A DNA stretch of 37,464 nt from a virus (lineage: Duplodnaviria > Caudoviricetes), in the IMG/VR virus record IMGVR_UViG_3300037851_000662, positions 1 to 37,464 of that record. One strand, given 5' to 3'. Position numbers and translations under genes: made by a program. Every line of letters begins with the position of its first letter. Positions within the stretch are counted from its first letter, which is position 1. The notes under the pieces were generated by a model. It saw nothing but the letters and a program-made list of their open reading frames with translations. It had not been told where the DNA came from and searched no databases. Below, piece by piece: positions 1,220 to 37,464 of the stretch.

Positions 1220-1786
1220 TTAATATCCAACAGCCTGCCAAGCAATGTCTCCGCTGATGGCCTGCGTAACCGTAAATCCGGAAAACGAATAACCATCTGC
1301 GCCTGCCCCGCCGTCTGACCCGCTATTCCTAAACGGTTTTTGGGTCACGACGACATTGAGACAGGCGTTTGGAAAATTGGTAGGAAACGTGACAGTTGTG
1401 GCTCCTCCGCAATATGCCACTCCCCACTGAAAAATCAGTCCTCCCGGCATTACGTAGTATCCGTTCGTCGCGATAAGGAGGCTGCCGTCCGGGTTCACAT
1501 ACCCCTTCAGGTCGGCGGGGGTAATGACAGAATCTGTTCCAGTTCCAACGGCAACTTCCGCCGGCGTTGAAAAGCGAACGGTTCCGACCGTTCCTGTCGT
1601 TGCCGTGGCGGGGATTAATTCATCCAGATCTTCCAGGACACCCTGCACATTTGTGCTGGATGAGTGGCCGAGCGACGCCGGGGCAACCGACACCTGTTTT
1701 GCCGGGGTCGTCGGCAGCGCGGCCGCGCTGAACGCCAATGCAAAAATCAGTGCGATAAGGGTGAGTAACCGATGTTTAATAAGCAT
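1220..1786 (-). CDS. Tail-fibre tip (gp53-like) domain protein with N-terminal signal peptide
   Basis: C-terminus NGYYVMPGGLIFQWG...VTFPTNFPNACLNV...WQAVGY; fibre motif ATTGTVGTVRFSTPAEVAVGT...ITPADL; N-terminus KHR + hydrophobic core + AAA. Confidence 0.75.
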   Translation of the reverse strand: MLIKHRLLTLIALIFALAFSAAALPTTPAKQVSVAPASLGHSSSTNVQGVLEDLDELIPATATTGTVGTVRFSTPAEVAVGTGTDSVITPADLKGYVNPDGSLLIATNGYYVMPGGLIFQWGVAYCGGATTVTFPTNFPNACLNVVVTQKPFRNSGSDGGAGADGYSFSGFTVTQAISGDIAWQAVGY

Positions 1787-1803: not shown

Positions 1804-2154
1804 TTAAATGCCGCGATAGAAAACGCGGACGTCATCTTCCGCTGTAATGGCCGGCGTAAATGTGATTGTTTTTCCGGCGATGTTGTAATCGCTCCCTTGC
1901 ACTGCGAGCAGGCGGCCGATGAACACCTGGACGCTCGCGTCAGAAACCGGAGTATATGCCAGCACGGCGGTGTTGGTTGATCCGGTTTTGTTTTCGACAT
2001 AGTCCGCGCCGAGCCTGTTTTTGAGCCACAGGGTGCGGTTCGCCAGCTGCTGCGCCTGGCGGTTGGATACCCCGTTAGGTCCGCCCTGGACCGGATCGTC
2101 CTCTTCAATCTGATAAACGTTGTCAAATGAATCCGCTGGTACAATATTTGCCAT
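1804..2154 (-). CDS. Tail-fibre baseplate-anchoring protein (short)
   Basis: VYQIEEDDPVQGGPNGVSNRQAQQLANRTLWLK is the typical N-terminus of fibres that follow P2 gpI; ends after a small beta domain. Confidence 0.75.
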   Translation of the reverse strand: MANIVPADSFDNVYQIEEDDPVQGGPNGVSNRQAQQLANRTLWLKNRLGADYVENKTGSTNTAVLAYTPVSDASVQVFIGRLLAVQGSDYNIAGKTITFTPAITAEDDVRVFYRGI

Positions 2155-4240: not shown

Positions 4241-4501
4241 TCACCCGGCCTCCGCGTCAACGGCATACTTAACGGGCAGAATATTCCAAAACTCCTCCTC
4301 GGATGTCACCAGGTGGAACTCCCCGCGCTTCGTGCCATGCAGCCACTTAATCCCGACGCCTTGTGCGCCGCCGTCATAACCGGATCGGCCCGCGAACTCC
4401 ACGGACGTCACCCGAAACCCGGCTCCGGGATACATCGGGCCGAAGCCATACACATTCCCGACCGCCAGCGGCTTCCGTTTGATTTTCTCCTGCACGCTCA
4501 T
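4241..4501 (-). CDS. Hypothetical protein
   Basis: ATGA overlap with the upstream gene; fills a gap in the tail operon. Confidence 0.6.
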   Translation of the reverse strand: MSVQEKIKRKPLAVGNVYGFGPMYPGAGFRVTSVEFAGRSGYDGGAQGVGIKWLHGTKRGEFHLVTSEEEFWNILPVKYAVDAEAG

Positions 4502-4995
4502 GCGGTCACCATCACCAGATAAACAATCAGGCCCTGCGCCGCTCCGTAATAAACTTCAGCCTGCTCCCAGGCGCTGCCGAAAAACTTAAAGCCTGGGCGA
4601 ACCGGATGCTGTCCGGCCTGCGTTACACAAAACGGGAAAGCCATCGCGATCAAGTGCAATCCGGAAACCAGAGCAAAGGCATCGCACCCGCATAGATGGA
4701 GCACAAGGAACACCGGAGCCCACAGCCAAATCCCGCGCACATAAAGACCATAAAAAAACAGATCATCGTTGGCATCTTTCAATATGCCGCCGATCAGATG
4801 ACCCCAGCTCCAGCATTCGCCAAGCACATACGCCGGGAAAAGAGCCGCCGCCCACCAGCTGTGCGTCATCAGTCCCGCCACGGCCGCCAGCACAAGGCCG
4901 ATCACCTTGGCAAAAATTCCCTTCGTTCCGCGCGCCCGGTTGAGCACCGCGCCGGCGACGATCGCAACCGGAATAAACAGCAGTTTAATCATCAT
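4498..4995 (-). CDS. Hypothetical multi-pass membrane protein
   Basis: GGAGG RBS, several hydrophobic segments. Confidence 0.7.
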   Translation of the reverse strand: MMIKLLFIPVAIVAGAVLNRARGTKGIFAKVIGLVLAAVAGLMTHSWWAAALFPAYVLGECWSWGHLIGGILKDANDDLFFYGLYVRGIWLWAPVFLVLHLCGCDAFALVSGLHLIAMAFPFCVTQAGQHPVRPGFKFFGSAWEQAEVYYGAAQGLIVYLVMVTA

Positions 4996-11444: not shown

Positions 11445-12092
11445 TTAGAATTGGTTTCCACCCGGCACCAGCGCCGTCCCAAGCACCGTGGCCGCCTGCA
11501 GCGTTGTCGCTCCAGTTACCTCCAGCACTCCTGTGATTTTCACCGCGCCGGTCAGATTGATGTTCGGCGCGGTCACGGCGGCGGCGACAGCAGCCGTGGC
11601 GCTCAGCGACCCAAGGGTGTCAACCTCCACATCGCCGGCGGCTTCCACCTTAACGCGGCCGCCGGAGACAACCCTCACATTGCCGTCGGCCACAACCGAC
11701 ACCGCCCCTGCGCAGCCGATCGACATCTCATGCGTGTCCAGATCGACCTGCACAAAGGTGCCGTCGGAGTAAACCGTTTTAAAAATCAGCGGATTGGAAG
11801 AGGGGTTCGGATTGGCCGCACTGCCAAGCGAGGCAACAATCACACCCTGTGCCGGGTCGCCGTTGTGGCAAAGCACCAGCACCTGCTCGCCGGCGACCGG
11901 CGCGGCCCAATCTTTGCGACTGCCCATGCGAGGAGACATCCAGGGCAGCTTCGCGGTCGTCAGGTCGCCGATCTTAACGCGCGCGCGGCCGCTCGGCGAG
12001 TCAACGTCAATCACCGTGCCAAACATTATCAGATTGGCAACGCGCCGCTCGACTTCGCGCAGATCGAATTGAGATGGATGGTCTGTCCTCAT
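11445..12092 (-). CDS. Baseplate spike/assembly protein V
   Basis: ERRVANLIMFGTV..VD...ARV..G...T..LPW...W.AP.AGEQVLVL...GD...G. Confidence 0.94.
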   Translation of the reverse strand: MRTDHPSQFDLREVERRVANLIMFGTVIDVDSPSGRARVKIGDLTTAKLPWMSPRMGSRKDWAAPVAGEQVLVLCHNGDPAQGVIVASLGSAANPNPSSNPLIFKTVYSDGTFVQVDLDTHEMSIGCAGAVSVVADGNVRVVSGGRVKVEAAGDVEVDTLGSLSATAAVAAAVTAPNINLTGAVKITGVLEVTGATTLQAATVLGTALVPGGNQF

Positions 12093-12102
12093 GTGTCATG
12101 AG

Positions 12103-12147
12103 AATCAGCCAAAAAGGAAAAGCAAACCGCCCTGAACGGGTTCAGAA
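12103..12147 (-). promoter_or_regulatory. Late promoter of the tail operon (activator box plus -10)
   Basis: TTCTGAACCCGTTCAGGGCG on minus; GATTCT at the same offset as TAGATT in the head promoter. Confidence 0.7.
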
Positions 12148-12148
12148 G

Positions 12149-12724
12149 TTACGCGGCCGGCGGATTCGGGTCGATCGGTTCCAGCCCATCCGATGCGTCA
12201 GACTCGCTGGATAAATAAACCCCCTCCGGGACAACACCGCCCGGCCACGGCAGCCCGTTTGTGTACATCAGGTCCGCGGTGCTCGGGTCCCCCAGCTGGA
12301 TCAGCTGCCGCCAGGCAACGGCATTCAGCGAGACGCCCCGGCCGTTCAACACCGTTGAAATTAGATTCTGCCACGAAACCTGCTTCGGCCTCGCCACGCC
12401 GGCGATATTCGACTGCGTGTTTTTAACAACAACCTGCGCCGCCTCGCTCAGGTTCAGCCCGATAATGTCCCGGTGCTGCTCAGCCGTGACAATGAAGGCC
12501 GAAAACACCGTGTCAGAATACTGCGTATCATCCCCGGCATCAGCGGACGGCTGGGCCGAAATCGCGGCGACAAACACCGCCGGTGATTTAACGCTCATAC
12601 GCTGCAGCGCGTCGGCATCCACCCGGCCCTCATGGATTTCGACCGACGCCCTGGGGAAGGCGGCCTTAAACACCTCAACCCATCGCTCCAGCGTCTGCAC
12701 CCGTTTCAGTTTTTCCAGGGCCAT
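12149..12724 (-). CDS. Mu gp37-like tail terminator/neck protein
   Basis: Position after gpG; VEIHEGR.D...L.R.....PAVFVA...W.NL.S...AVAWRQ. Confidence 0.65.
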   Translation of the reverse strand: MALEKLKRVQTLERWVEVFKAAFPRASVEIHEGRVDADALQRMSVKSPAVFVAAISAQPSADAGDDTQYSDTVFSAFIVTAEQHRDIIGLNLSEAAQVVVKNTQSNIAGVARPKQVSWQNLISTVLNGRGVSLNAVAWRQLIQLGDPSTADLMYTNGLPWPGGVVPEGVYLSSESDASDGLEPIDPNPPAA

Positions 12725-12759
12725 TGTCAGTTCTCCGTTAGCGGTTCTCAGTTATCCGG
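12725..12759. repeat. Heptamer array (TNTCAGT family)
   Basis: TGTCAGT TCTCCGT TAGCGGT TCTCAGT TATCCGG fills the whole gap. Confidence 0.6.
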
Positions 12760-13195
12760 CCAGCTGCTGCTGCCACCACACATTGATCAGCCCGCTGATC
12801 TGCTGCTCGTCTTCGGGACTCAACCCAAGGAACTCGCGCTGCGGAATCCCGCGCCTCGCGTCCCCGAACTGGTGCGTCGCCGCATAAGCCAGATTTGTTC
12901 CAACCTCCACCGAGGCTCCGGACACCAGGTGCACCAGGCTGTCGCGCAGATCGCCCTCCAGCTCCAGGATGCCGCCGCCTTTCTTTTTGCGCTGCTCATA
13001 CGCCGGACTCAGCTCCGGCCACTTCGTTCCATCTGGCGCGGTCTTTGTGGATTTAACCCGCTCCTTCGTCTGGGCCTCCACCAGCGCCCCGATCCCGTCG
13101 AAAAGCGGATTAAAATCCAGATTCAGCAACCGGCTGACCAACAGATCAACCCAGCTGAACCCCTCAGCCCTTACACTGACAGACGCACCGGCCAT
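12752..13195 (-). CDS. Virion morphogenesis protein (Mu gpG family)
   Basis: APDGTKWPELS, ILELEGDLRDS, VGTNLAYAATHQFG, IPQREFLGLS; likely start ATG 13195 (MAGASV). Confidence 0.93.
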   Translation of the reverse strand: MAGASVSVRAEGFSWVDLLVSRLLNLDFNPLFDGIGALVEAQTKERVKSTKTAPDGTKWPELSPAYEQRKKKGGGILELEGDLRDSLVHLVSGASVEVGTNLAYAATHQFGDARRGIPQREFLGLSPEDEQQISGLINVWWQQQLAG

Positions 13196-13223
13196 TTCCT
13201 GCCTCCCCACCCAAACGCCTTCT

Positions 13224-14921
13224 TCACGGGGTAGACACATCAATTCGAATTTCGCCGCGCGTTGTGGCCGGGCAGACAAACTGGGTGTTTGCCTCATAAT
13301 AAATATACGGGAAAATCTGGTTTGGCGTGCTGTACCCGAGAGAAGCTGCTCTGTAGATCAGATCTCCGGTTCCGATGAGAGAGAGAGACACTTCCTTCCC
13401 GGTCAAATCACTGCACTCCCATGCCTCGCCCTCCCTGATCCAGCCGACGGTTGTGAGTGCATTGCTCCCTGCGCATTCCACACCGTTAAATGTGAGAGTG
13501 GAGCTGGTGGCATTTCCGACGTGGATCAAATGCGACCCCTTAATGATCACCCAGCTCGCATCGTTTGTTGCCGCGCCTCCGGCATACATCTCCACCCTGT
13601 TCGCCTCGTTTGTTACAACCACAACAGCCCCGGCGGACAGGTTGGTCAGGGCCAGCTTGTCAGCATTTGAGCCAACAAACCGCGTCCAGATATCCGCCAG
13701 CGCATCCGTCACAGCCGCATTGCTCGGCACGGTGTTCGTGCCGCCGGTGACTGTTGGCGTGACGGAACCGGTATCGAGCTTCGTGGCAAACTGACCTGGG
13801 AAAAACTCAACCCACACGGTTTCCGGCGACCAGCCGTATGTCGGCGGGATCGCGCATCCTTGCGAAGTCACTGCGCTTATGTTCGCGTTCGATGAAACAA
13901 CTTCTCCGCCAAGCTTTATTTCCCAATGGTCGAAATTGAACAGAACAGTATTGGTCCCCGGCGCACCGTACTGGGCATAGCCATCGGTCACGTTGTAAAA
14001 ATCCATACGAATCACATCATTGCTCGTATGCACGCTTATATAGCTGTTCGTGACCGTTCCAAGCAGGCTGTCCCGGATGTTGTTCAACACCACAACCTTT
14101 GTCTCAAGCGCCGTCGTTGCCGCCTGACTTACAACTTGGTCCGTATTAGTGCCCATTGTTTGGACAACCGCTGTTTTATCAAGCTTGGTGTCCACGTCCG
14201 CCGGGGACGCCGCCCCGACAGCCTGCCGAAACGCCTCGGTTTGAGAGACGTACACGAGAGAAGGATTCGGCGAATTGTCACCGTAATCGACCCAATCGGA
14301 CGCCGCTTTGGGCGGGTTTTGCGGTCTTTGTTGTACATGCGAGGTGTGATAAAAGTACCAAGTATCTATCAGGGCTCCATCGGTATAAAACCGTTGAACA
14401 ACGTCCCACCATTCCGAGGTCTCGTCATTATTCGGCTGCACGTAGAACCCAGACACAAACAACCCGCCCTGCGGCTCCGGACCCCATAAAGCCGGTGCGT
14501 TCGTCCCGGACAAAAGCCAATAATTCGTGTTTGCGGCGGCATAACCCGAGTTTGTGACAGTAATGGAGAGCGGAGCCGCCGAAATATTCCCCCCGTCAAG
14601 ATCGAGCTTGGTTAATACCAATTCCGCCGCCGCCACGGCCTGCGTGTAACCCGCGGCCGTCGGTTGCACAGCAGACAGGGCCGCGCTGCTGACGGCGGGA
14701 TAGTTTGCCGGCCGGGCGGCGTTGATTAAATCGACGACGTTCGTGCCATCCACAATCACCGCCAGTGCATCGTTGGTTCTCGCGCACACCTGCGCAAACC
14801 GGGCATCTGGCGTTCCGATAAACTCCGTCCCGCTGTCCGGCGAAAGCCCTCCGACTGCGTGGATGGCCTGCGAGGCCCCGGCCAGCGACAAAACGAGTAG
14901 AACAAGATCAATCCTCTTCAT
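13224..14921 (-). CDS. Signal-peptide-bearing, fibre-like hypothetical protein (565 aa)
   Basis: GGAGGAG RBS before ATG 14921; MKRIDLVLLVLSLAGASQA; three TKLD segments and VVQTMGTNTDQVVSQAATT fibre-like motif. Confidence 0.75.
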   Translation of the reverse strand: MKRIDLVLLVLSLAGASQAIHAVGGLSPDSGTEFIGTPDARFAQVCARTNDALAVIVDGTNVVDLINAARPANYPAVSSAALSAVQPTAAGYTQAVAAAELVLTKLDLDGGNISAAPLSITVTNSGYAAANTNYWLLSGTNAPALWGPEPQGGLFVSGFYVQPNNDETSEWWDVVQRFYTDGALIDTWYFYHTSHVQQRPQNPPKAASDWVDYGDNSPNPSLVYVSQTEAFRQAVGAASPADVDTKLDKTAVVQTMGTNTDQVVSQAATTALETKVVVLNNIRDSLLGTVTNSYISVHTSNDVIRMDFYNVTDGYAQYGAPGTNTVLFNFDHWEIKLGGEVVSSNANISAVTSQGCAIPPTYGWSPETVWVEFFPGQFATKLDTGSVTPTVTGGTNTVPSNAAVTDALADIWTRFVGSNADKLALTNLSAGAVVVVTNEANRVEMYAGGAATNDASWVIIKGSHLIHVGNATSSTLTFNGVECAGSNALTTVGWIREGEAWECSDLTGKEVSLSLIGTGDLIYRAASLGYSTPNQIFPYIYYEANTQFVCPATTRGEIRIDVSTP

Positions 14922-15705
14922 AAAACCACACTCCTCCGTTTGCGTTTGTTTCGACAAAAATCCTGACGCGGCTCAGCGCGGCGGTGTATTCAGCGTCTGT
15001 CGGTTGTACAGCGGACAAGGCCGCGCTGCTGACGGCCGCATATCCCGGCGCTGCGGCGGCGATGGCCTGATAGACCGCCCCGCTCGCAGCGGACCAGGCC
15101 GGATCCAGCTCCGTCTGCACCGCACCGCCAATCGCCGCCCACAACTCATTAGTGGCCGTCCGCCAGTCAGGCAGCGGCAGATACAGACTCGCAATGATCT
15201 CCGTTGTATAAAGCGCCGGATAGGTCAGCGGCCCCGTGAAGCTGTAAAACCGTCCATCCGGGGTCCAGCTGACGGTAATGTTCTGCCGGGCGAGCACCTC
15301 GTGGTGCTCCATCGCCCCGCCAGATCCGCGAAACGTGCGCACAAACCCCCGGTATTCGCCCGGCGGCAGGTTGGCCCCCGCCGGCGGAACAAAAAACTTA
15401 ACAACCCCGGCCGCCGTCTGCACAGTACCCGTGCAGACGATGTACGCCTCTGTATATTTCTGCCCGGTACCCATCACCTCCCAGACAACCGTCTGGCCCG
15501 CGTTGGTTAAAACAACCGGAGAGGACTTGTTGATCGCCCGGTGAGTGTACTCGATGCTCTCCGCCTGGCCGAACGCCAGGCGCATCGGCTCCTTCGAATT
15601 AACATCCCAGGTCTCGCTAAACACCCGGTCAACCGCCTCCGCCCGCATCCAGGCACAAACCAGCAGGATCGCGGCAAGGAACATCTTTAAACACCTCTGC
15701 GTCAT
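14908..15705 (-). CDS. Signal-peptide-bearing hypothetical protein (265 aa)
   Basis: AAGGAGG RBS before ATG 15705; MTQRCLKMFLAAILLVCAWMRAEA; shares a motif with the downstream protein. Confidence 0.75.
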   Translation of the reverse strand: MTQRCLKMFLAAILLVCAWMRAEAVDRVFSETWDVNSKEPMRLAFGQAESIEYTHRAINKSSPVVLTNAGQTVVWEVMGTGQKYTEAYIVCTGTVQTAAGVVKFFVPPAGANLPPGEYRGFVRTFRGSGGAMEHHEVLARQNITVSWTPDGRFYSFTGPLTYPALYTTEIIASLYLPLPDWRTATNELWAAIGGAVQTELDPAWSAASGAVYQAIAAAAPGYAAVSSAALSAVQPTDAEYTAALSRVRIFVETNANGGVWFYEED

Positions 15706-15739
15706 CGTCTCTCCCTCCTTCGGATTCCGCGCCATGCGG

Positions 15740-16168
15740 CTACATCCTCCAGTTTTTAAAATCAGACCGGCCTGCCTCTACATCGCCTTCCTCGCCGGAG
15801 GCCGACGGCTTCTGCACCTCCGGGACCCCCAGATCGGCATCGCCCTTGCCAACGAGCTTCAGCAGCGCCACCGCCTTATCCCGGCGCTCCCGGATAAAAT
15901 CCGAGATCGTCGTCTCGTTGCACAGCAGATAGGCGGCGATGTCGCACACGGCGTTCTTCAGCATCGCCGGGATCGTCGCCAAGGGCATGGCATACCGGGA
16001 ATTCAGCAACACATCGGCCTCAGCCGAGGCATCCTCCAGCGCCGCCCCGATCCGGGCCGCGTCCGGCGCGTCATTCATCCCGTCGTCGTCGCTGTCCACC
16101 CCGGCAATCACCAGCAGCCGGGGCTCCGTCAGACGGCCGAGCAGATCCTCTTGAGTCGCATACGTCAT
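15740..16168 (-). CDS. Mu gp36-like head-tail adaptor (DUF1320)
   Basis: MTYATQEDL, ALEDASAEAD..L..RY.MPL, CDIAAYLL, LLKLVGKG...LG. Confidence 0.92.
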   Translation of the reverse strand: MTYATQEDLLGRLTEPRLLVIAGVDSDDDGMNDAPDAARIGAALEDASAEADVLLNSRYAMPLATIPAMLKNAVCDIAAYLLCNETTISDFIRERRDKAVALLKLVGKGDADLGVPEVQKPSASGEEGDVEAGRSDFKNWRM

Positions 16169-16345
16169 TTTCTACCCCCAAAAACCCTGTTTTTGCCCCG
16201 GAGGGGCCGGTTCGTTAAGATCAGGCCGTTTGCTGCCGCAAAAACACTGTTTAAATTCGCCCACAATCGTTTAAATGGTCCGCCTTCGGGCGCTTGGCCG
16301 GATGCTTCAGCCCGCCTCTCTGCGCCGATTTAAACCGCCTTCTGG
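16169..16345. other. Central non-coding region, candidate strong-gyrase-site analogue
   Basis: Largest internal gap, about 1.4 kb from the prophage midpoint; repeated TTTAAA and A/T tracts. Confidence 0.35.
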
Positions 16346-16347
16346 TT

Positions 16348-16394
16348 TTCCAAGGACTGGAACGTCCGGGCGTTCCGGTTTCCAACCCTTGGAA
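16348..16394. repeat. Two TTCCA-N5-TGGAA palindromes
   Basis: 16348-16362 and 16380-16394. Confidence 0.75.
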
Positions 16395-16430
16395 AACCCC
16401 CGGTCACGTCATGCCCGACCGGGGATTTTG
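16393..16430 (-). terminator. Intrinsic terminator after the capsid genes
   Basis: CCCCGGTC...GACCGGGG stem with a short T tract on either strand. Confidence 0.55.
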
Positions 16431-16446
16431 CGGCATCAACCGGCCC

Positions 16447-16656
16447 CTAGACCTCCACCTCTTCGACGATCAGCATCGGCTCCGCCTTGAGGGCGGCGAC
16501 CCGACCGCCCGTCAGGCTCTCGACCAGGACCGTCTTCGGCTCCTTGGTCCAGTGGATCCCGGCGCGGATAAAGCTCTCTTTCCGGCAGGTCACCTTCAGC
16601 GCCGCCTTTTTATCGGCCGGAGCCTCCGGTTGTGTGCCTTTTTTTTCCTTAGCCAT
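16447..16656 (-). CDS. HI1506-like small Mu-like head-associated protein
   Basis: SFIRAGIHW...LT..RVAALKAEPMLIVEEV, directly after gpT. Confidence 0.8.
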   Translation of the reverse strand: MAKEKKGTQPEAPADKKAALKVTCRKESFIRAGIHWTKEPKTVLVESLTGGRVAALKAEPMLIVEEVEV

Positions 16657-16718
16657 GATGTTCTCCAGGTTTGACCGGCCCGCCCGATCTGTCAGACCGG
16701 GCCGGCCTGGCGGTCAGG

Positions 16719-17627
16719 TTACGCAGCCCCCGTGCTGCCGTAGATCAGCTGCCAGAAGCCGTAACCGGCATTGCCGCGGGCTTCGATGCTGAACTTGTAA
16801 ACAGCCTGGTTGAACACGTCGTCGCTGTCCGGGTTGGTCTGGCTGACCAGCGTCGGTTTCTTCCGCTCCTGGAAGATGAACGGCATCAGCGCCTTGGTGC
16901 CATCAATCAGGAACCAGGCGGTGGCGCTGGTCAGCTGCGACCACACAACGACTTCGAACATTCCCTTGTAGGGATTCGGCTTGCCGTCTTCAAGGCGGTC
17001 GCTGGTCATCAGCACATTGGCGGTTTCGCGCAGGGCGGGCGGAACCGCCAGAACGGTCGGGTTGACGTCGAGCGGACGGCCCTGGTCGTTCTTCTGGCTG
17101 GTCATCGCCGTGATGGCGACGCCTAAGCTTCCCTGGGCGAGCGCCAGGGTGGCGCAGCTGAGGGCCTTGGTGCCTTTGTTGCTGGCAACGCCGTCGCCGA
17201 CCGGGTGGTCGGTGTCGATCATGTACTGGCCGTCGTAGCACTCTTTGGTGAACGCGCCGTTCATCAGATCGGCCACCATTTCATCCGGCCACATGGCCGC
17301 GGCCTGGCCTTCGCCGCGAGCCATCGCGACATAGATGCCGGTGTTGTCGTCCTCCAGGTCGTCGCGCTTCACACCGATCGTCGACTCGTAAGGCACGTTC
17401 AGGATCGTGTATTTCCCGGCAGACATATTCTTGACCACCTTGTCCCCGAGCCATTTGCGCATCGACGGCCAGCCGTCCTTGATCCAGCTGTAGTCGTTCT
17501 GCGAGCCGGTCGACGGGATCCGGGTGGCGAACTTCGCCCACATCGGTTTCGCCTCGCCCAGCGCCTTGTTGAAGGTCGTCAGAATGTTCTTCATCAGACC
17601 CGCGAGATTCTCTCTGTTAATAAGCAT
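16719..17627 (-). CDS. Major capsid protein (Mu gpT family)
   Basis: WPSMRKWLGDK, YESTIGVKRDDLEDD, CYDGQY..DTDHPV, PFIFQERK, RGNAGYGFWQL; start ATG 17627. Confidence 0.96.
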   Translation of the reverse strand: MLINRENLAGLMKNILTTFNKALGEAKPMWAKFATRIPSTGSQNDYSWIKDGWPSMRKWLGDKVVKNMSAGKYTILNVPYESTIGVKRDDLEDDNTGIYVAMARGEGQAAAMWPDEMVADLMNGAFTKECYDGQYMIDTDHPVGDGVASNKGTKALSCATLALAQGSLGVAITAMTSQKNDQGRPLDVNPTVLAVPPALRETANVLMTSDRLEDGKPNPYKGMFEVVVWSQLTSATAWFLIDGTKALMPFIFQERKKPTLVSQTNPDSDDVFNQAVYKFSIEARGNAGYGFWQLIYGSTGAA

Positions 17628-17704: not shown

Positions 17705-18406
17705 TTAAGCAATCGCCCGCAGAACCGTGTAGCAGACCTTCGTCGTGCCATTCGTTCCGTTCGCCGACAGCGTCAGATCAATCTGATCATTGGCTGCATC
17801 GTTCACCGCTTTCACCAGCGTTTCGGCGGCACCCTGCGCCACCAGCGTCGCCTGCACCACATCCGTGGCTTCAAGCCCGGCCACCGCAATGCTGTCGGTT
17901 GCGGCCGCGCCGCCCGCCCAGGCATGAATACCAGAGGCAATCACCTTGTGCGTGCTTCCGGTCAGGCCGAGCGCTTCATTCAGCTCCGCCGCATTGCGGC
18001 TGGCCGGCAGCGACGGCAGCACCCAAACCCCGGCCGCATCCACCCCGATGCAGAGCCCGGCGGAAGAGCGCGCCCCGGCGTTGTTGGTCTTCGATACCGT
18101 TTCATCATCCTCGATGAAGACCTCTTTCCCGACGCAGCTCTGATCCACCGCATCCAGCGCGCTGTTGGCCCACTGGAACGCCCGGTCGAATTCAGCCTCG
18201 CCGGTCAGCGCGCCATTCGCTCCTGCGGAATTATCCACGGTCTCGCGCCAGCGGCCGATCGCCTTGAGGTTGAGCGCCTCGCTGCCTTCGGCTCCATAGC
18301 CGAGGGCGTTAATGACGGCCATCTTGCCGGCCTCGACCTTCGTCGCAGCGGCGATACCGATCGCGATAAGTAGCACGGACCGGGCATTTGTGTTTCGTTC
18401 TCCCAT
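17705..18406 (-). CDS. Capsid cement/decoration-type protein with extra C-terminal domain
   Basis: Between protease and capsid; VDNSAGANG...FQWANS...VGKEVFIEDDETV...RSSAG....VDAAGVWV. Confidence 0.7.
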   Translation of the reverse strand: MGERNTNARSVLLIAIGIAAATKVEAGKMAVINALGYGAEGSEALNLKAIGRWRETVDNSAGANGALTGEAEFDRAFQWANSALDAVDQSCVGKEVFIEDDETVSKTNNAGARSSAGLCIGVDAAGVWVLPSLPASRNAAELNEALGLTGSTHKVIASGIHAWAGGAAATDSIAVAGLEATDVVQATLVAQGAAETLVKAVNDAANDQIDLTLSANGTNGTTKVCYTVLRAIA

Positions 18407-24550: not shown

Positions 24551-24585
24551 TTTCAGGTTTCAAGCTTCAGATTTCAAGTTTCAGA
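24551..24585. repeat. Heptamer array containing the gp26-like stop
   Basis: TTTCAGG TTTCAAG CTTCAGA TTTCAAG TTTCAGA. Confidence 0.85.
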
Positions 24586-24859
24586 TCAGCCCGGCCTCAT
24601 CCAGCACATCCACGCCGGGTGCTGTGATGAGATAAACGTCAACGGATTGGCTGTGTGCCTTTTTCTCGCGGATGATCAGCGCGTGCGCCTCCAGATAACG
24701 CATCTGTTTGGCCAACTCATCCTCTTCCAGGGTTTGGAAGCCGGCCAGCTTAACGCCGACATGGATCGGGCCGATCCGCAGCCCGGTCGGCCGCGCCGCG
24801 TTCAGCTGCATCAGGATTGCGGTCCTCAATAACTCTTTACTCTCTTCATTCAGCGGCAT
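24581..24859 (-). CDS. Mu gp26-like winged-helix protein
   Basis: R.AIL..L, L...MRYLE...LI, Y.IT..GVD; AGGAGACACCATG start at 24859. Confidence 0.7.
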   Translation of the reverse strand: MPLNEESKELLRTAILMQLNAARPTGLRIGPIHVGVKLAGFQTLEEDELAKQMRYLEAHALIIREKKAHSQSVDVYLITAPGVDVLDEAGLI

Positions 24860-24880
24860 GGTGTCTCCTCTTTTATGATT

Positions 24881-24908
24881 GCCACTGGCCACTAGCCACT
24901 GGCCACTA
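24881..24908. repeat. Heptamer array (GCCACTR)4
   Basis: GCCACTG GCCACTA GCCACTG GCCACTA. Confidence 0.85.
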
Positions 24909-24912
24909 AAGC

Positions 24913-25284
24913 TCATCGTCTCAGCAGCGTATCGATCTTTAAATCCATCTGGATTTGGCGCTGGTTCATCATCTCAATCTGCTTTTCCTGCCCGGCTCCC
25001 TGCTCTCCCAGTTCGCGCATGCCGGAATCCATATCGCGCCGGAGCTGCTCAATCAGGTTATAGAGCCGGGCGCGGCTCTCGCTGCTTTCCTTGTCGCGCC
25101 GGACGTTGTCGCCGTCGTTTTTGTTCCGATAGGCCGCGCAGTCGGAAATCGCCCGGAACTCCATCTCAACCGGCGGCGACCTCCGGAAGCTCTGGAAAAT
25201 CTTTATTCCCAGCAGCAGTGCGCCCAGGCACCACACCACAATTTGAATAAACGCCCCGAGCGCCTGTGAATTTTCAAGATTCAT
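24913..25284 (-). CDS. Membrane-anchored coiled-coil protein (Mu gp25/DUF2730 position)
   Basis: N-terminal TM, coiled-coil C-terminus ending KIDTLLRR, synteny. Confidence 0.6.
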   Translation of the reverse strand: MNLENSQALGAFIQIVVWCLGALLLGIKIFQSFRRSPPVEMEFRAISDCAAYRNKNDGDNVRRDKESSESRARLYNLIEQLRRDMDSGMRELGEQGAGQEKQIEMMNQRQIQMDLKIDTLLRR

Positions 25285-25288
25285 CCGA

Positions 25289-25765
25289 TCAACCCTTCAT
25301 CCGTTTAAATTTTTCAAAACTCCGTCCGGCAACATAAAGGCCCAGCAACGAGAAATAGCCCATCAGCATCGTGCCGTTAAAAAAACGTTCATGGCCGAGC
25401 ATGTGCCAAACCTGATCCCCCGCCAGCATCAGGGTCATGGTGTACGCTGCGGCCGGCCGCACCCGCTTCGTAAACAGATCGTCCTCCTGCGTCTGGGCCT
25501 CGTGGATCCGGGCCAGCGCCATCTGCGCGTCCGCTTCCGCTTTGGCCTCCGCCGCAAAGCGCTTCTGCGTTTCCGCCTGGATCTGAAATTGAAGTTTTTC
25601 AATTTCGAGAGCCGCCCGCTCGTTAGCCAGCTCGGCCAGCACTTGCGTGTTGGACAGGTTGGCTTTCTCCTCGGCGGTAAACCGTTCGTCATCGATCAGC
25701 TTGGTGACCGGCTCGAATGCCCGCGAAAACAGGCCGATGATTGCGGTAATGGCGGCAGAGCTCAT
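25289..25765 (-). CDS. Putative holin (3TM-type)
   Basis: KLIDD...TAEEKA, D.FTKRVRPAAAY, LGLYVAGRSFEKFK; start 25765 coupled by TGATG. Confidence 0.75.
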   Translation of the reverse strand: MSSAAITAIIGLFSRAFEPVTKLIDDERFTAEEKANLSNTQVLAELANERAALEIEKLQFQIQAETQKRFAAEAKAEADAQMALARIHEAQTQEDDLFTKRVRPAAAYTMTLMLAGDQVWHMLGHERFFNGTMLMGYFSLLGLYVAGRSFEKFKRMKG

Positions 25766-25923
25766 CAGGCGGGCTCCTTTCTGCACAGCTCAGGGTGCGA
25801 GCGGAAGTAATCATGGGCCGATCTCATCATCCCCGGAATCAGCCGGCGATTTTGTTTAATCCGTTTGTCCAAGAGTTCTTTCTCGGTCGGCGGACGCCTT
25901 TTTATTCTACGGCGGAAAAACAT
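25765..25923 (-). CDS. Small basic hypothetical protein (52 aa, not in ORF track)
   Basis: AGGAGACACCATG; MFFRRRIKRRPPTEKELLDKRIKQNRRLIPGMMRSAHDYFRSHPELCRKEPA*; stop overlaps the holin start. Confidence 0.65.
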   Translation of the reverse strand: MFFRRRIKRRPPTEKELLDKRIKQNRRLIPGMMRSAHDYFRSHPELCRKEPA

Positions 25924-25967
25924 GGTGTCTCCTCGCCGGGTTCAGCCGCATGGCGGCTTCCCCCGAG

Positions 25968-25988
25968 TTTCAGGTTTCAAGTTTCAGG
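25968..25988. repeat. Heptamer array containing a stop codon
   Basis: TTTCAGG TTTCAAG TTTCAGG. Confidence 0.8.
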
Positions 25989-26358
25989 ATTTAGCCCGGA
26001 ACGCCCGCACCAACTCGATCACCGCAACGGTTTCGGTTGCCAAAGAAACCACCGTCCGGAAGAGCTGCTCAACGCGGGCCTCGGCTTCTTTATCGGCCAA
26101 TTCAAATTTCTCGGCAAAATGCGCCACAATCGCTTCACGCTCTTCGGCGGAAAGGTCTTTGAGTTCGGCGGGGAGCTGTGGTGCGCCTTTAATCAGGCTG
26201 ATCACCGAGGGAATGTGTTTCACCAGCGCGAGCGACTCGCCCAAATCCAGCTTGCGGTCTTCGAGCGCCTTGCCGATATCTGCGCCGATTTCGATCACGG
26301 TTTCCAGCGTCAGAATCGTCGAATCAATGCCAACCTGCTTTGTAACTTCCTCTGTCAT
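25984..26358 (-). CDS. Hypothetical acidic helical protein, first gene of the late lysis/packaging operon
   Basis: GGAGACACCATG start; no recognisable catalytic motif. Confidence 0.75.
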   Translation of the reverse strand: MTEEVTKQVGIDSTILTLETVIEIGADIGKALEDRKLDLGESLALVKHIPSVISLIKGAPQLPAELKDLSAEEREAIVAHFAEKFELADKEAEARVEQLFRTVVSLATETVAVIELVRAFRAKS

Positions 26359-35121: not shown

Positions 35122-36570
35122 TCAGGTGACGTTGCCCGCGAGAGGTTTTGATTTTCTGTAGAGGTTGAAATGCTCTTCCATATTGTGCGCGATATCTTTC
35201 TTGTGGCCCCTTTTCGCTAACGGAATCGCCTTCCGGACGGTATCCATCGCGGCTTTAAAGTCGCCGGTTTCCGCCTGTGCTGCGGCCAGAATCATTTGGG
35301 TTTCCGGATCGTCGGCCCCCAGATGAATGGCCCGGTAAATATATTCAAGAGCCTTGCGTCCGTTGCGCGCCTGCGTAATGCTGCTGGTCGCAAGGGTCCA
35401 TGCGCGCGATTTCAATACGTCCGGCGAGTTCATGTCGGCGCTGGCGTCGGCCGCCCCGTCGGCAACTTCAGAAACGGATTTGTCCACCTTGATGCCGGCG
35501 GCGTCGAATTTCTGCTGTAATGACTGTTTATCGACTGCTTTCACGTAGGCTTCGCGCGGTTCGATAATGCCGTCCTGTACCAGCTGGAACAGGGTGTCTG
35601 TAAACGAACGCATGCCCAGATTGTAGCCGGTCTGAATGGCTGTTGGAAGCTGGTGGGTTTTCTGTTCGCGGATGTTGGAGCGTACGGCGGGGGTCGCCAG
35701 CAGAATTTCCGCGGCGGCAACCCGTCCTCCGCCTATTTTCTTGCAGAGCGTTTGGGCGATGATGCCGCAGAGAGTGTTTGCCAGCAGGTTGCGGATCTGG
35801 TTCTGCCGGTCGCCGGGGTATTTGTCGATGATGCGGTCGGCGGCGGAGGTGGCGGTGTTGGTGTGAAGGGTGCCGAAGACCAGATGGCCTGTTTCGGCTG
35901 TTTCCAGTGCGATTTCGGTGGTTTCGAGGTCGCGCAGCTCCCCGACCAGTACGATGTCGGGGTCTTCACGCAGGGCGGCGCGAAGGGCGCCGGCGAAACT
36001 GCGGGTGTGGCGGTGGACTTCGCGCTGGTTGATCAGGCAGTTTTTGGGCTGGTGGATGAACTCAATCGGGTCTTCGATGGTGATGATGTGCTCTTTGCGG
36101 GTGCGGTTGATCAGGTCGATCATGGCCGCCAGCGTGGTGCTTTTTCCGCTGCCGGTCGGGCCGGTCACAAGAACCAGACCTTTGGAGAGCATGCACAGTT
36201 CCTGCAATACGGCGGAATGCCCCATCTGCAGGTCGTCGAGTGACGGCACCTGATCCGGAACATAACGGAAAACGCCGCCCATACCGTTCATATCGCGGAA
36301 GGCATTGACGCGGAACCGTCCGGCGCCCGGCAGGGTGTAGCCAAAGTCTGTGTCCCAGAGGGTTTCGAATTCCTGCTTGTTCGTTTCCGGCATAATGGAC
36401 TTCATCATGGCTTCCGCAGCCTCTGCCGTGGTCTTCGACAGTTTGGAGAGGGACTGCATTTCGCCGTGGACGCGGATACAGGGATGGTAGTTTGTTGAGA
36501 GGTGCAGGTCGCTGGCGCCTTGGTCCACGACCAGTTGCAACAGTTCGTCAAGCAGGTTCAGACGGCTCAC
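35122..36570 (-). CDS. pilT: Type IV pilus retraction ATPase with C-terminal TPR-like extension (host)
   Basis: ASDLHL, GRFRVNAF, GPTGSGKSTT, TIEDPIE, LREDPDIVLVGE, AETGHLVFGTLHT, AVRSNIRE. Confidence 0.92.
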   Translation of the reverse strand: MSRLNLLDELLQLVVDQGASDLHLSTNYHPCIRVHGEMQSLSKLSKTTAEAAEAMMKSIMPETNKQEFETLWDTDFGYTLPGAGRFRVNAFRDMNGMGGVFRYVPDQVPSLDDLQMGHSAVLQELCMLSKGLVLVTGPTGSGKSTTLAAMIDLINRTRKEHIITIEDPIEFIHQPKNCLINQREVHRHTRSFAGALRAALREDPDIVLVGELRDLETTEIALETAETGHLVFGTLHTNTATSAADRIIDKYPGDRQNQIRNLLANTLCGIIAQTLCKKIGGGRVAAAEILLATPAVRSNIREQKTHQLPTAIQTGYNLGMRSFTDTLFQLVQDGIIEPREAYVKAVDKQSLQQKFDAAGIKVDKSVSEVADGAADASADMNSPDVLKSRAWTLATSSITQARNGRKALEYIYRAIHLGADDPETQMILAAAQAETGDFKAAMDTVRKAIPLAKRGHKKDIAHNMEEHFNLYRKSKPLAGNVT

Positions 36571-36761
36571 AATCGGCTCCTTGTTGGAAGTAGGGTTCGT
36601 GTTACGACGGTAGACGATAGCAGGGGGCGTTGCTGAATAATACTCAAAACTTACAGTTTTAGCAGATGTAAAGCCTTGACGGAACGGGTTCTTTGCTGGT
36701 TAATGCTTGCTTTCCGCGTAATATGGAATTTTTGTGTCCTGCCTGCAGAACGGAGTGTACC

Positions 36762-37464
36762 ATGGTTAAGAAAAATGCTGTTTCGGCAAAGAAAACCGAG
36801 AAGAAAACAACGGCTTCGGCCGGAAAAAAAGCCGTTGTTAAAACGGTTCCTGCCAAAAAGGCCCCTGCGGAGACAAAGGGGAAGCCGGCTTCAGGAAAGG
36901 CCGTTGCGAAAAAATCTCCGGTTGAGGAAAAAGTAAAGAAAGCCCCGGCCCGGACTGCGGAAAAGAATGCGCCGGTCGAGCGGCTGCCGGAATTTTCCAT
37001 TCCGGGCGATGAGATGATGGAGAATCCGGATCTCGACTCCATGCAGGCTCCGTTGCCGGAGGAGGCTCCCGCCTCGTCGGTGATGCTCCGCGAAGAGCGT
37101 AACGAAAAGATTAAGGACCTGATCGCGCTGGCGCAGGAACACGGCTTCCTGACGCATGAGGATATCGAAGAGGCGCTTCCTGAAGATCTGGTTACCCCGG
37201 AAGATTCGGAAAAGGTCATTGCGCTGCTCCGGAGCATGGAGGTGGAAATCATCCGCGCCGACGACGTGGAGGATTACAAGGCCCGGATGGAAAAAGAGGA
37301 GCGCGACCGGCAGAGCGCCCGCAGCGACGTGCTCGACGACCCGGTCCGTATGTATCTCAAGCAGATGGGACAGGTTCCGCTGCTGACCCGCGAGCAGGAA
37401 GTGGAGATTTCCAAGCGGATCGAAGAGGCGGAGCAGAACACCACCAGTCTCTTCAACCGCATCG
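36762..37464 (+). CDS. rpoD: Primary sigma factor RpoD, N-terminal part (host; runs off window)
   Basis: K/A-rich leader, region 1.1 LIALAQEHGFLTHEDI, region 1.2 DDPVRMYLKQMGQVPLLTREQEVEISKRIE. Confidence 0.95.
   Translation, partial: MVKKNAVSAKKTEKKTTASAGKKAVVKTVPAKKAPAETKGKPASGKAVAKKSPVEEKVKKAPARTAEKNAPVERLPEFSIPGDEMMENPDLDSMQAPLPEEAPASSVMLREERNEKIKDLIALAQEHGFLTHEDIEEALPEDLVTPEDSEKVIALLRSMEVEIIRADDVEDYKARMEKEERDRQSARSDVLDDPVRMYLKQMGQVPLLTREQEVEISKRIEEAEQNTTSLFNRI

Follow-up and report, generated by a model that had tools for sequence, protein, structure and literature searches.

In the 37,464-nucleotide (nt) stretch of viral DNA given by IMG/VR record IMGVR_UViG_3300037851_000662 (Duplodnaviria; Caudoviricetes; the whole stretch is called the window below), three minus-strand genes encode proteins that begin with signal-like segments: P0001 and P0002, which lie side by side between the head-tail adaptor gene gp36 and the tail completion gene gpG, and a distal tail fibre. 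The reading that we favour, at a probability of roughly 60 %, is that the docking protein P0001, the fibre P0002 and the distal tail fibre are exported through Sec and dock on finished particles at lysis. Pfam and PHROGs matches identify the window as a Mu-like prophage that is almost complete and has a contractile tail of the P2 type; they comprise MuA, MuB, Gam, Mor, the Mu portal, gpF, gpI, gpT and gp36, as befits a Mu-like transposable phage, and further terminase, protease, sheath, tube, tape measure and baseplate. The features that bear on the favoured reading are as follows, in coordinates of the window.

14908..15705, minus strand: P0001, 265 amino acids (aa), with predicted signal, BppU-N/collar Ig-like domain, Ala-rich stalk and short beta-rich end.
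15634..15705, minus strand: predicted Sec/signal peptidase I signal peptide of P0001, 24 aa, ending in A-E-A (homologue alignment and rule-based test).
15196..15633, minus strand: BppU-N-like docking domain of P0001, residues 25-170 (fold match about 26-153).
13224..14921, minus strand: P0002, 565 aa, with predicted signal, mosaic fibre and C-terminal predicted trimeric domain.
14865..14921, minus strand: predicted Sec/signal peptidase I signal peptide at the start of P0002, roughly 19 aa long and ending in S-Q-A (rule-based test).
14091..14195, minus strand: tail-fibre repeat motif of P0002, residues 243-277 (phrog_23008, E 4e-4).
13227..13724, minus strand: C-terminal region of P0002, residues 400-565, a mobile module and predicted homotrimer (structure prediction).
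1804..2154, minus strand: tail-fibre stub, 116 aa, no signal, the N-terminal part of a canonical fibre (phrog_4209, positions 12-59 of 406; phrog_3100, positions 1-58).
1220..1786, minus strand: distal tail fibre, 188 aa, with T4 gp12/gp34-type repeat and Gp53-like/R-pyocin-type knob (profile matches).
1718..1786, minus strand: predicted signal peptide of the distal tail fibre (rule-based test).
15740..16168, minus strand: gp36, the head-tail adaptor, which borders the cassette upstream and has no signal (PF07030, E 4e-28; phrog_195).
12752..13195, minus strand: gpG/tail completion (Neck1), downstream border of the cassette, no signal (PF05069, E 8e-23; phrog_26).

A preliminary description, made from the sequence alone, had pointed to two signal-like genes with strong ribosome-binding sites between gp36 and gpG, and both features were recovered: the genes of P0001 and P0002 overlap by 14 nt and are preceded by AGGAGG 8 nt before 15705 and AGGAG 9 nt before 14921, respectively. 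Both N-termini consist of a basic n-region, a hydrophobic core (best nine-residue mean Kyte-Doolittle value about 3.2) and an A-x-A-type end, and no later transmembrane segment was found in P0001 or P0002 (best 19-residue means 1.43 and 1.16). The third signal-bearing gene, that of the distal tail fibre, had been overlooked. All signal calls stem from our own rule-based and permissive test rather than from SignalP; it flags 3/3 candidate proteins as compared to 2/30 core genes of the window, both likely false calls, and the exact cut site of P0001 is deduced from where the conserved domain of its homologues starts. The best Shine-Dalgarno (SD) sequences stand at the outer starts (15705, 14921 and 1786), so that translation begins before the hydrophobic core. 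The description had also considered gp36 and gpG to be near neighbours as a rule, in agreement with the three cultured-phage records that were opened out of 59 matches, none of which has such an insertion after the adaptor: in Ochrobactrum phage POA1180 the adaptor gene directly adjoins the Neck1 gene, and RS138 and HS6 show no such cassette after it. An assembly error was not seen, as a public-run contig, possibly from the source sample itself, covers positions 11500-17500 with 0 differences.

The argument that exported proteins join the virion draws, as we infer from sequence, most strongly on the tail fibre, which is split. While the stub matches the beginning of phrog_4209, the distal fibre matches positions 290-388 of the same family, so that the pair spans both extremities of a single fibre family; a Mu/P2-type fibre unites docking N-terminus, repeats and knob in one chain, whereas these parts are here distributed over two genes. 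As no distal tail-fibre gene other than this signal-bearing one was found in the window, exported proteins would have to reach the virion, as otherwise the particle would carry stubs only. The same split occurs in three of the four relatives in which the region is seen (G402/G001, G403 and G400), and the distal-fibre homologues keep a signal before the mature domain in 3/3 cases, the mature starts being 55-66 % identical across the split relatives and the signals 14-43 %. A scan of the viral contigs for the distal fibre found none, and the family gave no match in G381, G404 and G017, which are fragments or have an unsplit fibre. The C-terminal half of the stub weakly matches tailspike N-domains (E 0.15-4, a lead only).

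P0001 matches no Pfam or PHROG family, and its fold became apparent by modelling of the N-terminal domain with AlphaFold2, which reached a pLDDT of 88.7 with the homologue alignment as compared to 38.8 from the single sequence. In a VIA-align comparison with 48,161 chains, the nine best matches (Z 12.1-7.3) are all phage virion parts, with the first unrelated rows at Z 7.3 and below. The BppU N-domain of TP901-1 leads (4v96; Z 12.1, rmsd 2.7 Å over 126 aligned residues; 3uh8, Z 11.3). The Sf14 neck (9c39) reaches Z 9.7, and other top matches come from the baseplates of 80alpha and NF5, the tail tip of T5, Douge, the neck of P74-26 and the adaptor of R4C. Foldseek concurs (E 1.7e-6 for BppU) and also reports DT57C and the Bas63 connector, and in a BFVD search viral models named BppU or minor tail come first. 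An Atlas structure row bears the name BppU_N; Atlas feature matches lie below 0.9 and are leads only. By its model, the domain thus has the Ig-like BppU-N fold, while the Pfam profile BppU_N (PF10651) matches 0/14 members of the alignment. Despite this, P0001 is predicted to work like a fibre-anchoring adaptor. The BppU-N/collar fold occurs on both necks and baseplates; fold and gene position of P0001 fit the neck collar/whisker type of Sf14 and Bas63.

Relatives of the domain were collected by a six-frame search of class genomes and a profile search; a word-index protein search with whole P0001 matched only itself, and the N-domain gave no match against longer proteins. Among the 401 genomes of the class of G001 (a Verrucomicrobiota metagenome-assembled genome with a close prophage), 12 have a homologue at E<=5e-4, the matches with higher E (25 of 37 genomes) having been dropped before signals were counted. 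In 12/12 of these, judged by eye, the signal-like segment ends just before the shared domain. The profile search added 10 further proteins, 10/10 signal-bearing, two of which repeat counted ones, so that the signal is kept in 20/20 distinct homologues; the preliminary description would have been contradicted by homologues that lack it. Eleven larger loci around these homologues look by eye like prophage structural regions.

The fibre-like segments that had been noted in P0002 are present, with TKLD at residues 104, 245 and 380 and a further motif quoted at the time at 252-270; the 35-residue PHROG match listed above is the one match to a fibre or tip family. Near the end of P0001, an 81-nt segment (14984..15064, minus strand) shares 75 % identity with 14644-14724 in the first part of P0002, which we read as a stalk segment common to both. 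In a search of 1.84 billion proteins, the C-terminal module was present in 64 of the 66 other matches; the signal is missing in 62/64 of these homologues and found in only 2/64, and several start with domains that look BppU-like by eye (one weak LtfC match). Residues 400-565 are predicted to form a homotrimer (ipSAE 0.70 versus 0.00 for the best control, pLDDT no lower than 69, contact agreement of 48 % or more), a mark that 20/30 solved pairs and 1/23 single chains reach, these counts being rough for three copies. The domain has no Pfam match, and a PDB sequence search with its profile gave 0 matches.

The locus, too, is kept beyond the window. A signal-bearing cassette of 3-6 genes (one contig is cut short) lies between gp36 and gpG in all eight distinct close relatives, that is, six viral contigs, G381 and G400 with duplicates merged; five distant gp36 matches in four genomes were not counted. 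Gene content varies between relatives, and by eye none of the genes is homologous to P0001. The signal rule flags 32/34 of them, or 28/30 without three rhomboids and one papain-like gene. The first cassette gene belongs to one family in 8/8 relatives, and a segment of it resembles a cyanophage tailspike (7eea, E 4e-8), the sole match of the PDB searches, which gave none to Rcc01079. We presume that the family resembles the head-spike base of RcGTA (Rcc01079), an identity that could not be shown. It is a small beta protein of about 165 aa with an inserted carbohydrate-binding-like segment (our loci L001-L006, L026, L028 and L122-L125), with forms lacking the insert in L124 and L125 and the signal in L123. 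A 444-aa cassette gene (L006:10854-12188) has no clear start or signal and possibly a broken 5' end. Promoter and terminator scans stayed at chance level, with no excess marking the cassette.

In 3/8 relatives, the last cassette gene encodes a rhomboid protease (PF01694), which also occurs in one further prophage. These rhomboids carry H-x4-H-x3-N and a C-terminal His, and the three that end cassettes have G-x-S-G; no report of phage rhomboids was found in the open-access literature. Near cassettes there are also a lipoprotein-type caspase-like gene (PF00656, at the cut-off) and, repeatedly, genes of a permuted-papain-like type (with a weak PF05708 match in one case), which are candidate wall enzymes.

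L002:9354-9947, L004:11964-12542, L028:1766-2362, L067:4831-5439: phage rhomboids beside signal-bearing genes.
L026:7970-9642, L067:3343-3903, L073:17884-18489, L074:5347-5940: caspase-like and permuted-papain-like genes.

Other prophages of the class have a small signal-bearing gene directly after the major capsid gene (L068:6004-6390, L073:12579-12995, L030:13518-13928 and L075:12699-13154). Signal-less genes that look BppU-like by eye stand directly before signal-bearing fibre genes at L070:7021-7689, L071:6469-7152 and L076:5333-5998, and possibly encode cytoplasmic docking rings.

As judged from sequence, the signal-bearing class has a further, independent hallmark in an excess of Thr-Asn pairs. 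The three signal-bearing proteins of the window contain 18 such pairs as compared to 5 expected (about 3.4x; 0/20,000 shuffles), the cassette genes of relatives have 4.15x and the core genes of the window 1.03x, and in 10 other prophages 36 signal-called genes reach 3.19x versus 1.24x for 107 other genes; 62 signal-less homologues have 1.25x. Neither Asn-Thr nor N-x-S/T (0.82x) is enriched. Targets of PglB/STT3 N-glycosylation were rejected as an explanation on account of the latter value and as no STT3 was found in five incomplete host genomes, and the same lack of STT3 and the 0.93x of the host class weigh against a simple host-wide glycosylation mark. A few large surface-type proteins of host G001 do have a Thr-Asn excess (1.42x for 21 proteins, some 1.6-2.3x). 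Among the loci of G001, L114-L115 and L088 hold a cluster of large surface-type proteins that are rich in Thr-Asn and poor in Asn-Thr, in contrast to the PEP-CTERM-like proteins.

In mechanistic terms, the three genes by their sequence lie in the late structural operon and start with signal-like segments that core virion genes lack, while the models give P0001 the Ig-like fold of rings that anchor fibres on necks or baseplates and P0002 a C-terminal trimer. The mature N-terminus, where the docking segments begin, would be freed by signal peptidase I or, in certain relatives, by a rhomboid of the phage; the holin (25289-25765) would open the inner membrane, and the exported proteins would then attach to finished particles. 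P0001 would bind the gp36/gpG neck, as its gene position suggests, and carry P0002 via the shared stalk segment, and the 188-aa distal fibre would bind the cytoplasm-made 116-aa stub on the baseplate. Conceivably, export might expose the proteins to a modification in the periplasm that Thr-Asn pairs mark, likely glycosylation, might keep sticky adhesins away from assembly and, in some phages, might be followed by rhomboid-timed release. The preliminary description had called P0001 and P0002 exported late proteins, which the signals of the P0001-domain homologues and the cassettes of the relatives support at the level of sequence, and had left their function between head or neck fibres added outside the cytoplasm, egress factors and secreted receptor blockers. 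Extracytoplasmic fibres fit best in view of the docking fold, the predicted trimer and the split fibre with its signal-bearing distal half, whereas an egress factor receives no backing, neither P0001 nor P0002 having an enzyme match in Pfam or PHROGs; a secreted receptor blocker is a less probable alternative.

Several observations count against export followed by docking. The signal rule is permissive, with its 2/30 false calls among core genes, and membrane proteins are flagged by it as well. Just after its signal, P0001 has a GTG in frame, with GGAGG 11 nt upstream, that could give a cytoplasmic form, and most of P0002 has no match. Taken as a class, the host proteins of G001 that are called signal-bearing lack a Thr-Asn excess (74 proteins from 800 of 2,700 kb), no STT3 was found in five related, incomplete host genomes, and no rhomboid is found in the window. 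G405, finally, has the cassette but a single unsplit, signal-less fibre and hence an ordinary cytoplasmic tail fibre, which means that tail-fibre export is not obligatory in the group. An alternative is that the proteins stay in the cytoplasm, owing to internal starts or failing signals, as ordinary neck and tail fibres; the internal GTG of P0001 and the many signal-less homologues of the P0002 C-domain agree with this. We nevertheless regard it as very improbable: the internal GTG of P0001 is not conserved (5/24 genes at scattered places, with a background of 12/120), P0002 has no in-frame ATG between residues 1 and 256 and the distal fibre no internal start either, so that true starts downstream of the hydrophobic segment, which the preliminary description had named as a possible objection, are not indicated; moreover, the signal character is kept in all 20 homologues while its sequence varies, and the Thr-Asn excess tracks the signal.

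A somewhat better but still unlikely account is that the cassette products are exported and serve in the host envelope as receptor masks, superinfection blockers, adhesins or decoys; built from recycled fibre domains, they would never join the virion. Exported phage proteins that act on the envelope are known, for example, sortase substrates and outer membrane proteins of huge phages (10.64898/2026.10.24.761521). The cassette is hypervariable, its counterparts in relatives hold rhomboid, lipoprotein-type caspase-like and papain-like genes, and some large surface-type proteins of the host have a Thr-Asn excess as well. Yet the mature N-terminus of P0001 is, by its model, a virion-docking fold, the particle would be left with a 116-aa stub as its distal fibre gene bears a signal, no promoter or terminator excess sets the cassette apart as a unit of its own, and the genes overlap in an operon-like manner. 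There is also little reason to expect that the N-terminal segments are uncleaved or late-cleaved anchors and that fibres tethered to the inner membrane are freed by a phage or host rhomboid or picked up there. The rhomboid genes with family motifs that end three cassettes would suit such a scenario, but the h-regions are short and A-x-A immediately precedes the conserved domain, as suits signal peptidase I, and a cassette rhomboid is absent from the window and 5/8 relatives. Sec export and docking at lysis may be part of a wider picture, which we put forward tentatively and consider doubtful as a whole: tailed phages of Kiritimatiellia would have two-compartment virions, with head, tail and stubs made in the cytoplasm and all outer fibres, the receptor-binding tip of the tail fibre among them, in the periplasm, Thr-Asn-modified and in some phages rhomboid-released, which meet at lysis without a recognisable endolysin.

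Besides a holin-like gene, the lysis region (24581-26358, minus strand) encodes a membrane protein and a conserved protein of 124 aa without assignment, and looks alike in two relatives. No endolysin was matched among the 52 window genes scanned with Pfam and PHROGs, nor in the lysis-region genes of two relatives. The prophage is flanked by host DNA, the PilT-type ATPase of which is 68 % identical to a gene in G001. Two homologues come from a Kiritimatiellia bacterium and from Verrucomicrobia bacterium S94 (P0071), and from these source names the host is likely a member of the Kiritimatiellia.

25289..25765, minus strand: holin-like gene (phrog_3427, E 4e-10; PF11351 below cut-off).
35122..37464, no strand: host DNA beside the prophage (PilT-type ATPase PF00437, E 7e-49; RpoD-like N-terminus by eye).

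Elsewhere in the window, a capsid decoration-type protein (17705-18406, minus strand; phrog_1731) carries a 100-aa C-terminal extension that is found in L008, L010 and L028 and not in L009, L011 and L027. A 165-aa multi-pass membrane protein without family match lies between tail and baseplate genes (4498-4995, minus strand), where G001 has a small lipoprotein (DUF1375) in the matching region, and a Dam-like DNA methyltransferase at the phage end (334-1095, minus strand) is kept in relatives.

The accepted view is that tailed phages complete their particles in the cytoplasm. The component folds described here are known, and the Sec-export route for tailed-phage fibres was not found described; the search covered open-access literature. 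Export of the outer fibres and their attachment at lysis would, if true, amount to an undescribed route of morphogenesis; virions could then bear host-type modifications, and receptor-binding proteins of phages of Planctomycetes-Verrucomicrobia-Chlamydiae (PVC) bacteria may have been misfiled as 'secreted morons'. The split fibre offers a small, testable pair of stub and tip, and the homologue P0071 may offer a test system in S94, which we take to be a cultured strain. For the Verrucomicrobia phage P8625, the available part of its report gives no signal peptides (PMC4642752).

Among known systems, P0001 shares its predicted fold with the N-domain of TP901-1 BppU (ORF48; 4v96, 3uh8; PF10651), which likewise precedes a stalk, and with the 80alpha (6v8i) and NF5 (9m8o) baseplate chains that group with it. 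BppU is an adaptor for receptor-binding proteins. P0001 shares 10-12 % identity with it and differs in the lack of a Pfam match, the signal-like segment in front and a gene position in the head-tail module of a myovirus rather than in a baseplate module. The fold is also like that of the Ig-like collars of Sf14 (9c39), Bas63 (9mt4) and T5/DT57C LtfC (7qg9, 8hqz) and of the R4C adaptor attachment domain (8gtd), with Z 9.7, 8.8 and 7.3 and Foldseek E 1e-4 to 5e-6, the collar chain being assigned from entry title and length. Such rings anchor whiskers or fibres according to the accessible sections of three reports (PMC12609058, PMC10713586, PMC10276861): a dodecameric Ig-like collar bears the neck whiskers of Bas63 (PMC12609058), and the LtfC ring is the anchor for the lateral fibres of DT57C (PMC10713586). 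Those sections make no mention of an export signal on the collars, whereas P0001 has a predicted one. Of Mu/P2-type and R-pyocin fibres (phrog_4209; PF21882; T4 gp12/gp34 repeat, 9f4a, 9f4b, 6ct8), stub and distal gene represent both ends, with the difference that the fibre of the window consists of two genes and has a signal on the distal one only; the N-terminus of Mu gp49 docks on the wedge (PMC11915804, in part).

Phage genes with export signals are in themselves familiar. The small non-virion proteins T5 Llp, Cor and T4 Spackle are exported to the envelope, but lack virion-docking folds, and the signals of the filamentous coat proteins pVIII and pIII are well known. Filamentous phages assemble at the membrane without lysis from anchored coat proteins, while the window represents a holin-bearing tailed phage with soluble fibres. 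The virion proteins of filamentous phages rely on the secretion machinery of the host (PMC4823517), as is proposed here for outer fibres.

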